From the NCBI RefSeq assembly GCF_056746865.1, contig NZ_CM163382.1: a stretch of DNA of 64,000 nucleotides; one strand, 5' to 3'. The position numbers were made by a program, and so were the translations under genes. Shown one piece after another: positions 22,790-39,733 of the stretch. Positions within the stretch are counted from its first letter, which is position 1; each line of letters starts with the position of its first letter. The notes beneath the pieces are model-generated. The model did not search any database, was not told the DNA's origin, and saw only the letters and a list, made by a program, of their open reading frames with translations.

Positions 22790-23397
22790 TTAATGACACT
22801 CCATTTTATTTATTATACTACAAGCACAACGATGCCCGCAGAGACGTAATCTCTGGCACAGACAGATGCTAATTTTTAAGTGTTAAAAATTACTGATAGC
22901 TGAAAAATAAGGGGCTTTCAGGTACGGGGATACGACTGCGTAATCTTTTATGTAGTTCATATGTTAAGTGTTTGTGTGTTTGGTTTGTATAGTTATTTTG
23001 TTTTATATATTGTATTTAGATGTGATTTAGTTTGTCAATTAATTACATATTAAAAATATGTTCTAGGCACAAATATGGATTATATACATTATGTGAATGT
23101 ATTATGTGGTTGATTGAGAATGATACAGTTATATATGCAATGTGAATATAATGATTTCATTATATGTATTGCTGTTAATAAAATAAAAGACATTATGTTC
23201 TGCTTGTTTATGCATTAATAAAAATGAAGTGCAGTAACTTACTGAATTGTCAGCGTGGGTGTAATTGCATATTTAATCTTTCCTTTGCCGCTTTTTTGCT
23301 AAGAATAAAATCATCTGTGCGATAACGACTAATTCTTTTAATGAATGTTTTTATTCCTGAATACTGCTCCTATAACAAGACAGGGGAGCAGACAATC

Positions 23398-24360
23398 ATG
23401 GCAATTTCATCGCGTAACACACTTCTTGCCGCACTGGCATTCATCGCTTTTCAGGCACAGGCGGTGAACGTCACCGTGGCCTATCAAACCTCCGCTGAAC
23501 CGGCGAAAGTGGCTCAGGCTGATAACACCTTTGCTAAAGAGAGCGGGGCGACGGTGGACTGGCGTAAGTTTGACAGCGGAGCCAGCATCGTGCGGGCGCT
23601 GGCTTCAGGCGATGTCCAAATCGGTAACCTCGGTTCCAGCCCATTAGCGGTGGCAGCCAGCCAACAGGTGCCGATTGAAGTCTTCTTACTGGCGTCAAAA
23701 CTGGGTAACTCCGAAGCGCTGGTGGTAAAGAAAACTATCAGCAAACCGGAAGATCTGATTGGCAAACGCATCGCCGTACCGTTTATCTCCACCACCCATT
23801 ACAGCCTGCTGGCGGCGCTGAAACACTGGGGTATAAAACCCGGACAAGTGGAGATAGTGAACCTGCAGCCACCCGCGATTATCGCCGCATGGCAACGGGG
23901 AGACATTGATGGTGCTTATGTCTGGGCACCGGCGGTTAACGCCCTGGAAAAAGACGGCAAGGTGCTGACCGATTCTGAACAGGTCGGGCAGTGGGGCGCG
24001 CCGACGCTGGATGTTTGGGTAGTGCGCAAAGATTTTGCCGAGAAACATCCTGAGGTCGTGAAAGCGTTCGCTAAAAGCGCCATCGATGCTCAGCAACCGT
24101 ACATTGCTAACCCAGACGCGTGGCTGAAACAGCCGGAAAACATCAGCAAGCTGGCGCGTTTAAGCGGCGTGCCGGAAGGTGACGTGCCGGGGCTGGTGAA
24201 GGGGAATACCTATCTGACGCCGCAGCAACAAACGGCAGAACTGACCGGACCGGTGAACAAAGCAATTATCGACACCGCGCAGTTTTTGAAAGAGCAGGGC
24301 AAAGTCCCCGCCGTGGCGAATGATTACAGCCAGTACGTTACCTCGCGCTTCGTACAATAA
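23398..24360 (+). CDS. tauA: taurine ABC transporter periplasmic binding protein
   Basis: MAISSRNTLLAALAFIAFQAQA signal peptide, 320 aa. Confidence 0.9.
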   Translation: MAISSRNTLLAALAFIAFQAQAVNVTVAYQTSAEPAKVAQADNTFAKESGATVDWRKFDSGASIVRALASGDVQIGNLGSSPLAVAASQQVPIEVFLLASKLGNSEALVVKKTISKPEDLIGKRIAVPFISTTHYSLLAALKHWGIKPGQVEIVNLQPPAIIAAWQRGDIDGAYVWAPAVNALEKDGKVLTDSEQVGQWGAPTLDVWVVRKDFAEKHPEVVKAFAKSAIDAQQPYIANPDAWLKQPENISKLARLSGVPEGDVPGLVKGNTYLTPQQQTAELTGPVNKAIIDTAQFLKEQGKVPAVANDYSQYVTSRFVQ

Positions 24361-28187: not shown

Positions 28188-29162
28188 TTAACGCAGAATC
28201 TTCTTCTCAGCCAAATCCAGCGCAAAGTAGCTGAAAATCAGATCCGCACCCGCACGCTTAATCGAACCTAAGCTTTCGAGCACGACTTTCTCTTCATCTA
28301 TAGCACCCGCCAGCGCGGCGAACTTAATCATCGCATACTCACCGCTCACCTGATACGCGCCAATCGGCAATTCAGTACGTCCACGCAGCTCACGCACGAT
28401 GTCGAGGTACGCTCCAGCTGGTTTCACCATCAGGCAGTCTGCGCCCTGGGCTTCATCCAGCAATGATTCACGAATCGCCTCACGACGGTTCATTGGGTTC
28501 ATCTGATAGCTTTTGCGGTCGCCTTTTAATGCGCTTCCTGCCGCTTCGCGGAACGGGCCATAAAAGGAAGAGGCAAACTTGGTCGAATACGACATAATCG
28601 CCGTATCTTTAAAGCCCGCAGCGTCCAGCGCCTGGCGAATCGCCTGTACCTGACCATCCATCGCGGCGGAAGGGGCGATGAAGTCCGCACCTGCAGCAGC
28701 TGCAACCACGGCTTGCTTGCCTAAATTTTCCAGAGTCGCGTCGTTGTCGACGCCATGCTCGCACAGCACACCGCAGTGACCGTGAGAAGTGTATTCACAA
28801 AAGCAGGTGTCTGACATCACGATCATTTCAGGCACGGTCTGCTTGCAGATGCGCGACATCCGCGCCACCAGTCCATCTTCCCGCCAGGCATCGCTGCCGG
28901 TTTCATCGGTATGGTGAGAGATGCCGAAAGTCATCACGGAACGAATACCGGCGTTGGCGATGCGTTCAATTTCGCGTGCCAGATGTTTCTCAGGAATGCG
29001 CATCACGCCTGGCATGGCTTCAACGGCTTTGTAGTCGTCAATTTCTTCTTCAACAAAGATCGGCAACACCAGGTCGTTAAGGCTAAGTGTTGTCTCTTCA
29101 AACATAGCGCGCAGCGCAGGAGATTTGCGCAGGCGACGAGGGCGTTGGATTAAGTCTGTCAT
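28188..29162 (-). CDS. hemB: porphobilinogen synthase (delta-aminolevulinate dehydratase)
   Basis: protein from [28 protein letters not shown] (324 aa) inside a longer track ORF. Confidence 0.92.
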
Positions 29163-29687
29163 GGTCTGCCTGATGTTTGTGGAATCGAGGGGCATAGTAT
29201 ACCTGAAGCAGGGTGGGGATGTTTTACGAAAGTTGTCGCGATGTTGACAAGAAGAGAATGAAAGAGAGTCCATGACATCTTTGTAATAGAAACAGCAATA
29301 ATTTCATATTCACTGAAAATATTTTTAATTTTTATTTATATCCCTGGATTATTGTTTTTACGGATTTGATTGCGTTATCAAAAACAGAATGATTTAAAGT
29401 TCATTGGTTATTGATAGATTATTTGTCTGGTTTGTGTGTTTGATATTTTAAATGCATATGCTTTAAAAATGGAACTCCTGTTAACTTGTTGAAACATCAA
29501 GCCTTTATCAATTTTTTCTTTGTGTGTTCCTCCGTGCTTTATATATGTCCGTAACCGGACTTCGGGGAAAGAATAATTGAACCATTCCTCTATAACGCCG
29601 CATAATCGTCAACGCGAAACATAAGATGTTTTCTATGCATTGATAATTGATGGATCAACTTATTACGTCCCTGAGGAGGGATGACAA

Positions 29688-32606
<2,919 letters not shown>

Positions 32607-32620
32607 TGAAGAAATAGGTT

Positions 32621-33303
<683 letters not shown>

Positions 33304-39272: not shown

Positions 39273-39733
39273 CTTAAAAACCTATCCCGTCTAACACAAA
39301 GTGCATACATTACCACGACAAAACGGGGGATTCGCGGCCTTCTGACAGAATGTTGCAATCTTCTGCTGACAAAGCGTGCAACGTACTGGTGAAGAAAGTG
39401 CGTTATCTCAATGATGTGCGCAAGATCACAAAAATGATGAACGGGAAGCTAATTTATTCCTGGCTTGTATGGCCATGCAGTGAGTTTTTTCTCTTAATTA
39501 TAAGTTAACGAAGAGAATATATTTCATAACTTTTATTTATAATAAAGGTTGATAATTAAAAGCCTATATTTTGTGTGGGTAATTATTAAAATAAGAGAAA
39601 CGTTTCGCTGGTAATCAAACAAAAAATATTTGCGCAAAGTATTTCCTTTGTCATAAAAATAATACTTCCAGACACTATGAAGTTGTGAAACATAATGTTA
39701 ACTTCTCCATACTTTGGATAAGGAAATACAGAC

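Follow-up and report, generated by a model that had tools for sequence, protein, structure and literature searches.

The 525-bp gap that separates hemB from the divergent autotransporter gene yaiT/ehaB/upaC of Escherichia coli is read here, with moderate confidence, as a composite control region of the two genes, in which the spacer and the AT-rich passenger-coding DNA would act as an H-NS silencing domain. According to this explanation, the ~75-180 bp adjoining hemB would carry the hemB leader and promoter, and the 147 bp adjoining the autotransporter gene would carry the promoter of the latter (transcription start near 29613), a dyad ~60 bp upstream of this start and a 5' UTR of ~75 nt with a hairpin at the ribosome-binding site. 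The spacer of ~200-300 bp between them, which is very AT-rich, would be constrained in length and composition and not in sequence. The spacer probably forms an H-NS nucleoprotein domain together with the AT-rich passenger-coding DNA. In ordinary growth conditions the adhesin promoter would be held silent by such a domain, and expression would need relief of silencing or counter-silencing, plausibly via a factor bound at the conserved dyad.

Repression of the gene by H-NS has already been published; what is added here comprises the four haplotypes of the spacer together with the conserved promoter, its dyad and the elements of the leader. These details refine the known picture and leave the current understanding of the control of such genes unchanged, the gap holding no unusual element. 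The adhesin encoded by the autotransporter gene acts in biofilm formation and matrix binding, occurs in most E. coli and has been considered as a vaccine antigen. A predicted promoter position, a set of constrained upstream bases and the lack of a phase switch would narrow the search for the on-signal of this adhesin.

The window, by which is meant the whole stretch of 64,000 nucleotides that was analysed, is E. coli DNA that matches the urine isolate 118UI at 100% identity. A sequence-only reading of it had placed an AT-rich region of about 520 bp between divergent hemB and yaiT, and this proved accurate: positions 29163 to 29687 are the exact 525-bp gap between hemB (minus strand) and the autotransporter ORF (plus strand), with a GC content of 0.350 compared to 0.513 for the whole window. 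The AT-richness extends over hundreds of bp. The GC content is 0.28 over the core of the gap (29250-29550), with local dips to 0.25-0.30 within 29250-29500, and just 1.5% of the 525-bp segments of the window are as AT-rich as the gap. Among the intergenic regions of the first 50 kb, the gap ranks second in length after yaiS-tauA (608 bp). Further AT-rich stretches of the window are found inside the glycosyltransferase gene yaiP (22850-23250, GC down to 0.215, the window minimum) and in the ddlA-iraP gap (39400-39600, GC 0.25-0.29). For the PIG-L deacetylase gene (23715-24125, yaiS in K-12), the annotation of this strain gives a truncated pseudogene.

The gap was found in 5423 of 5426 complete E. 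coli genomes. Its E. coli alleles measure 522-525 bp, i.e. their length is kept within 3 bp, and identity of the whole gap to the window is at least 99% in 167 E. coli records and 80-90% in 4074. A scan of one genome per species returned 28 related loci. The gene order hemB (divergent), autotransporter, iprA, ampH was present in every locus that extended far enough, and the arrangement occurs in Escherichia, Citrobacter, Pseudocitrobacter, Enterobacter, Leclercia, Lelliottia and Huaxiibacter. In at least seven genera the gap has been retained, at 439-549 bp and a GC content of 0.31-0.36; its middle is unalignable between genera, and clear footprints are seen at both ends. An Enterobacteriaceae-type autotransporter with 73% identity to the protein of the window is also carried by a 2-kb contig of a 'Segatella copri' metagenome-assembled genome, where it is most likely a binning contamination. 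Based on an alignment of eight E. coli alleles and on comparison across eight genera, the gap was divided into three zones. Its anatomy and conservation pattern are given in Table 1.

Table 1. Features of the hemB-autotransporter gap and of the flanking genes (positions in the window).
Feature	Position	Strand	Basis or remark
hemB (porphobilinogen synthase)	28188-29162	-	ORF; RefSeq annotation of 118UI (identical strain)
hemB four-fold degenerate sites (yardstick)			Mean pairwise difference 7.8%, range 2.5-13%
Zone 1, hemB-proximal	29163-29340	-	Mean pairwise difference 6.2% among E. coli alleles
Conserved block TGCCTGATGTTTGTGGAA	29167-29184		hemB side; kept in 19 sequences, several genera
Conserved block AGTATA (TATACT on hemB strand, candidate -10)	29196-29201		Kept in 19 sequences, several genera
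Conserved block TGTTTTACGAAAGTTG	29220-29235		hemB side; kept in 19 sequences, several genera
Zone 2, AT-rich hypervariable spacer	29341-29540		GC 0.305; mean pairwise difference 27.6%
Zone 3, gene-proximal block (147 bp)	29541-29687		Mean pairwise difference 4.3%
14-bp dyad GTCCG-N4-CGGAC	29547-29560		Upstream of promoter; outer GT...AC invariant in 26 sequences, 8 genera
Predicted sigma-70 core promoter of autotransporter gene	29577-29606	+	Consensus scan and cross-genus conservation
-35 TTGAAC	29577-29582	+	Invariant in 26 sequences, 8 genera; within conserved AAAGAATAATTGAACC
-10 CATAAT	29601-29606	+	Invariant in 26 sequences, 8 genera; within conserved GCATAAT
Predicted 5' UTR (~75 nt)	29612-29687	+	Cross-genus alignments
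Dyad AAACAT-N3-ATGTTT	29617-29631	+	In 5' UTR; Escherichia and Citrobacter only
Conserved block TGCATTGATAATTGATGGATCAAC	29636-29659	+	Holds the single GATC (29653-29656) and an A-N-GGA motif
Predicted hairpin CGUCCCU-GAGG-AGGGAUG	29666-29683	+	Pairs 3' half of Shine-Dalgarno sequence
Shine-Dalgarno GAGGAGG	29673-29679	+	
Intact AIDA-type autotransporter gene (968 aa)	29688-32594	+	Pfam PF03797, TIGR01414
iprA (yaiV), CRP/FNR-fold DNA-binding protein (predicted)	32680-33303	+	NCBIfam NF008810, Pfam HTH_46

The passenger-coding part of the autotransporter gene is AT-rich (GC 0.34-0.46) and hypervariable, and the beta-barrel part is conserved: in segments of 100 bp, identity to other E. coli alleles ranges from 36 to 80% over 29800-31100, and it is 97-100% beyond 31600. 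According to PMC8281228, the names EhaB and UpaC denote two forms of the gene found at this locus, and SeaB is its positional orthologue in Salmonella (PMC13248724). In the NCBI naming, ehaB is used for some alleles of the yaiT locus. Strain CFT073 bears an intact gene at the hemB/autotransporter/iprA locus, and K-12 yaiT, at the same locus, is split by IS3. Independent inactivation of the gene has occurred in many lineages, either by insertion, as with IS3 in K-12, ISEc52 in ATCC 25922, IS2 in G4/9 and IS1203 in O111:H8, or by frameshift, as in O157 F8797. In strain 4848, an IS1-linked deletion took most of the gap and nearly the whole autotransporter gene.

On the hemB side, the divergence of zone 1 among E. 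coli alleles is near neutral. Zone 1 would hold the hemB leader and a putative promoter. The hemB gene is assumed to be essential. The deletion in strain 4848, which leaves just the first 52 bp adjoining hemB, is a natural test and shows that hemB can dispense with most of the gap. In the strain studied here only, an ATG at 29271-29273 lengthens the hemB frame to 361 aa; other strains read CCAGG at this place, so that the longer frame lacks conservation and probably has no meaning.

On the autotransporter side, 5406 of 5412 E. coli records show 90% identity or more over zone 3 and the first 11 codons together. The spacer of its predicted promoter is exactly 18 bp long in all 26 sequences compared, and the spacer sequence varies freely. 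Fixed hexamers and fixed spacing around a free spacer sequence are what a sigma-70 promoter (here TTGAAC-18 bp-CATAAT) should show, and transcription is predicted to start at 29612-29614. This site scores 9/12 and is the sole plus-strand promoter-like site in the consensus scan. The scan for promoters and terminators as a whole returned no more sites than were found in shuffled sequence; the promoter call rests on conservation. As the conserved promoter, the sole one seen across genera, ends 81 bp before the ATG, the transcribed leader is predicted to be ~75 nt long, and not about 520 as the term 'leader', applied to the whole region by the sequence-only reading, would imply. The regulatory input that had been supposed to reside in the region is supported, with the deeply conserved promoter, the upstream dyad and the 5' UTR elements all located within 29541-29687.

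The centre of the conserved 14-bp dyad lies at about -59.5 relative to the predicted transcription start, which makes the dyad a candidate site for a dimeric regulator. Its inner positions are asymmetric in some genera, and the outer GT...AC geometry of CRP/FNR-type operators is present. One exact match to the dyad occurs in the 64 kb, which is within chance expectation. An RcsB-like half box, AAGAATAA, adjoining the -35 hexamer was also considered and was rejected, its second half-site being a misfit to the consensus.

Zone 2 consists of four discrete haplotype classes that are 25-36% apart in the eight-allele E. coli alignment. The first comprises the window and FUJ80154, the second PRO_A and ATCC 25922, and the third K-12, O111 and G4/9; the fourth is that of O157, which is 34% different from the window. 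CFT073, which stands outside this alignment, matches the PRO_A/ATCC 25922 class in its sliding-window profile against the window. Among 5401 matching records, identity of zone 2 to the window is bimodal (at least 95% in 302, 80-95% in 66 and 60-80% in 5033), and the allele of the window is found in ~6% of E. coli genomes. This bimodality occurs while hemB, zone 3 and the beta-barrel part stay at least 90-97% identical, which is the pattern of a switched intergenic region. Between genera zone 2 is unalignable; its length and AT content are nonetheless kept. Judging from the alleles compared, zone 2 and the passenger are shuffled independently: the window has a K-12-like passenger, yet its zone 2 is 32% different from that of K-12, and FUJ80154 has a window-type zone 2 joined to an O157-type passenger. 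From this shuffling, recombination breakpoints appear to fall within the conserved stretch of zone 3 and the signal peptide. The allele classes of the upstream spacer offer a clear within-species case of non-coding DNA that is far more diverse than the genes around it. This diversity fits the proposal, made in the title of PMC4720273, that H-NS-bound DNA diversifies faster.

The sequence-only reading had also regarded the long AT-rich gap as a pattern common to silenced or phase-variable surface protein genes. Silencing agrees with the AT-richness of the DNA, with the reported H-NS repression of UpaC, with the H-NS binding of neighbouring genes and with phenotypes that appear only upon overexpression; phase variation finds no switch features to support it. 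UpaC is listed as H-NS-repressed in UPEC in PMC5012682, which cites Allsopp 2012, and is cited as H-NS-repressed in PMC3966885 as well. According to these citing papers, repression of upaC (c0478) by H-NS in CFT073 was described by Allsopp et al. (2012, Infect Immun 80:321). In ChIP data (PMC4720273, S2 table), H-NS occupies the downstream neighbours yaiV and ampH, and yaiT and hemB are absent among the supplementary rows listed for that study. Phenotypes of EhaB and SeaB were seen only upon overexpression, which the authors considered to be possibly due in part to repression in vitro (PMC13248724). The high-affinity H-NS motif TCGATAAATT is not enriched in the gap, where it has two matches with 2 mismatches each. 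As a rule, H-NS binds DNA of such AT content in Enterobacteriaceae, whatever its exact sequence. Silencing of the autotransporter gene, already known for the locus, is thus indirectly supported. The reported repression concerns the CFT073 allele only, and the allele of the window would be repressed by analogy with it. Zone 2 is proposed to be H-NS-bound DNA with a silencing and insulating function.

The main rival explanation is that zone 2 is inert, fast-evolving filler produced by AT-biased mutation and recombination of old alleles, with all regulation residing in the 147-bp block. Mutation bias alone can make unconstrained DNA AT-rich, and zone 2 is not only unalignable between genera and shuffled independently of the passenger alleles (window versus K-12; FUJ80154) but also diverges 3-6 times faster than silent sites within E. 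coli; moreover, neither the high-affinity H-NS motif nor the Lrp consensus is enriched in the gap. However, a gap of similar length and GC content persists in at least seven genera, the E. coli alleles hold their length almost constant, and bacterial genomes tend to delete useless DNA. DNA of such composition would in addition generally be bound by H-NS whatever its sequence. Inert filler is regarded as a less likely account of zone 2.

The invariant leader element TACGTCCCTGAGGAGGGATGA places the ribosome-binding site in a predicted hairpin of -10.9 kcal/mol (z = -1.5). This hairpin is the only consensus structure in 19 sequences, and its 7 pairs are essentially invariant. No compensatory base-pair change was found in leader structures across these 19 sequences, and because the hairpin is invariant, covariation neither supports nor refutes it as a selected structure. 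On a speculative reading, the conserved hairpin and the two A-N-GGA motifs (29650-29654 and 29673-29681) could provide a translational layer of control such as CsrA. The roles of both the dyad and the hairpin are putative. The first eight codons of the autotransporter gene (ATGCACTCCTGGAAAAAGAAACTT, 29688-29711) are almost invariant across genera at the nucleotide level, including the third positions of three Lys codons, suggesting that more than the protein sequence is constrained.

Readings of the gap as the source of a riboswitch, of a small RNA or small protein, or of a 5' leader that is long and structured are very improbable. The 109-nt leader RNA does fold slightly better than shuffled sequence (z = -1.85), but the conserved promoter leaves only ~75 nt for a leader, no base pair shows a compensatory change, and a scan of 28900-30000 against Rfam gave no match on either strand, even at E values up to 10. 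A potential upstream ORF starts at the ATG at 29650. With 21 codons in Escherichia (29650-29715), it overlaps the main start codon; the version of Citrobacter and Pseudocitrobacter is 11 codons long (MDQxxYVPEEG) and stops 4 nt short of the main ATG. This ORF speaks for a small protein, but it is devoid of a ribosome-binding site, its frame is not the same in Escherichia and Citrobacter, variation in its codons alters the amino acid, and it is missing in Leclercia and Enterobacter ENT03. No small ORF in the gap is conserved.

A phase switch of a known type, whether Dam/Lrp (pap), Dam/OxyR (agn43), an invertible promoter (fimS, ipuS-upaE) or a slipped-strand repeat, deserves hardly any credence, the points in its favour being the general precedent that surface adhesins of E. 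coli are often phase-variable (e.g. PMC6083910) and one weak match to the Lrp consensus at 29415-29429. This match is all that the search for Lrp-type motifs, suggested by the sequence-only reading, returned in the gap, and the companion search for GATC found a single site, at 29653 in the predicted 5' UTR, where ~2 would be expected by chance. Tandem Repeats Finder detected no tandem repeats in the gap, and the longest homopolymer is T6. No convincing inverted repeats flank the gap, the matches being short, imperfect and AT-rich, and the same holds for direct repeats; nor is a recombinase gene present in the neighbourhood of the gap in the window. In 5379 of 5424 E. coli records, one place covers at least 80% of the query. 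Each of the full-length gap matches listed is a single collinear piece, and no inverted form of the gap occurs among the matches sampled from ~5400 genomes. With the GATC, Lrp, repeat, recombinase, Rfam and collinearity tests all negative, phase variation by a known DNA mechanism is not supported, and this alternative appears largely refuted at the sequence level.

Dam-type switches have three GATC sites (agn43) or two (pap) inside regulator sites. The gap resembles the control regions of agn43 (Dam/OxyR) and pap (Dam/Lrp) in its position upstream of a surface adhesin gene of E. coli, but it has one GATC and is devoid of an array of Lrp sites. Similarly, fimS and ipuS, the latter located upstream of upaE (PMC6083910), are segments, a few hundred bp in length, that precede an adhesin or autotransporter gene, whereas the gap has neither flanking inverted repeats nor an adjacent recombinase gene.

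If expression of the adhesin does depend on a factor bound at the dyad, the product of iprA, a little-studied regulator, may be considered as a local candidate. This gene lies directly 3' of the autotransporter gene in every examined locus that extends that far. Pfam and sequence methods recognise the C-terminal winged helix of IprA alone. An AlphaFold model built from 15 orthologues (pLDDT 82) predicts that IprA is a complete CRP/FNR fold, with a beta-roll, a long dimerisation helix and a winged helix. Full-length CRP, Vfr, NtcA and GlxR align with the model at TM-scores of ~0.7 (0.73-0.75 for CRP and Vfr, at 13-18% identity). Operators of the CRP/FNR family are dyads of 14-16 bp with conserved outer GT...AC, such as GTGA-N6-TCAC for CRP and GTA-N8-TAC for NtcA; the FNR operator is TTGAT-N4-ATCAA. 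The dyad of zone 3 is like them in its length of 14 bp, in its invariant outer GT...AC and in its location near -60, which is a class I activator position, but its half-site sequence GTCCG fits no known member of the family. The predicted CRP fold of IprA, the geometry of the dyad and the synteny in all genera examined lead to the hypothesis that IprA bound at GTC-N8-GAC (~-60) acts as a dedicated anti-silencer or activator of the EhaB/UpaC/SeaB adhesin. This remains a rather unlikely proposal. If true, it would give a widely conserved 'cryptic' adhesin a defined local regulatory circuit.

A second GTC-N8-GAC (32641-32654) was considered as a shared operator and was rejected, since it behaves like the stem of an RNA terminator with wobbles and a compensatory change; it lends no support to the operator hypothesis. 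The hairpin in question (32633-32662; -20.4 kcal/mol, z = -6.5) is located between the stop codon of the autotransporter gene and iprA, and ends only ~18 nt short of the start codon of iprA. Across genera the structure is preserved, showing G-U wobbles and a single compensatory double change. A T-run follows it in Citrobacter and Enterobacter, and not in E. coli; the hairpin is terminator-like.

Several counterparts of the locus have been described. The seaB gene of Salmonella (PMC13248724), positional orthologue of the gene of the window, has the same divergent hemB neighbour. The ehaB gene of O157:H7 (Wells et al. 2009) shares with the window the divergent hemB neighbour, the 525-bp gap and an identical proximal block, but it carries the fourth zone 2 haplotype. 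The upstream region of upaC in CFT073 is at the same locus and likewise has a 525-bp gap, whose promoter hexamers, dyad and 5' UTR agree with those of the window. Identity to the window is 98% over 29600-29699, whereas the middle 200 bp of the gap belong to another haplotype class, ~27% different, and identity in the passenger-coding part is just 52-76% per 100-bp window over 29800-31099. Given such a distance in zone 2 from the CFT073-class allele, regulation could differ between alleles. 'Switched' intergenic regions, or horizontal regulatory switching, have reportedly been described in E. coli by Oren et al. (PNAS, 2014). As in the gap studied here, the genes on either side of these regions are conserved, and the non-coding DNA that they enclose exists as discrete alternative alleles of high divergence. 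In the hemB-autotransporter gap, by contrast, the core promoter and the 5' UTR are constant, and it is the upstream spacer alone that has been switched.
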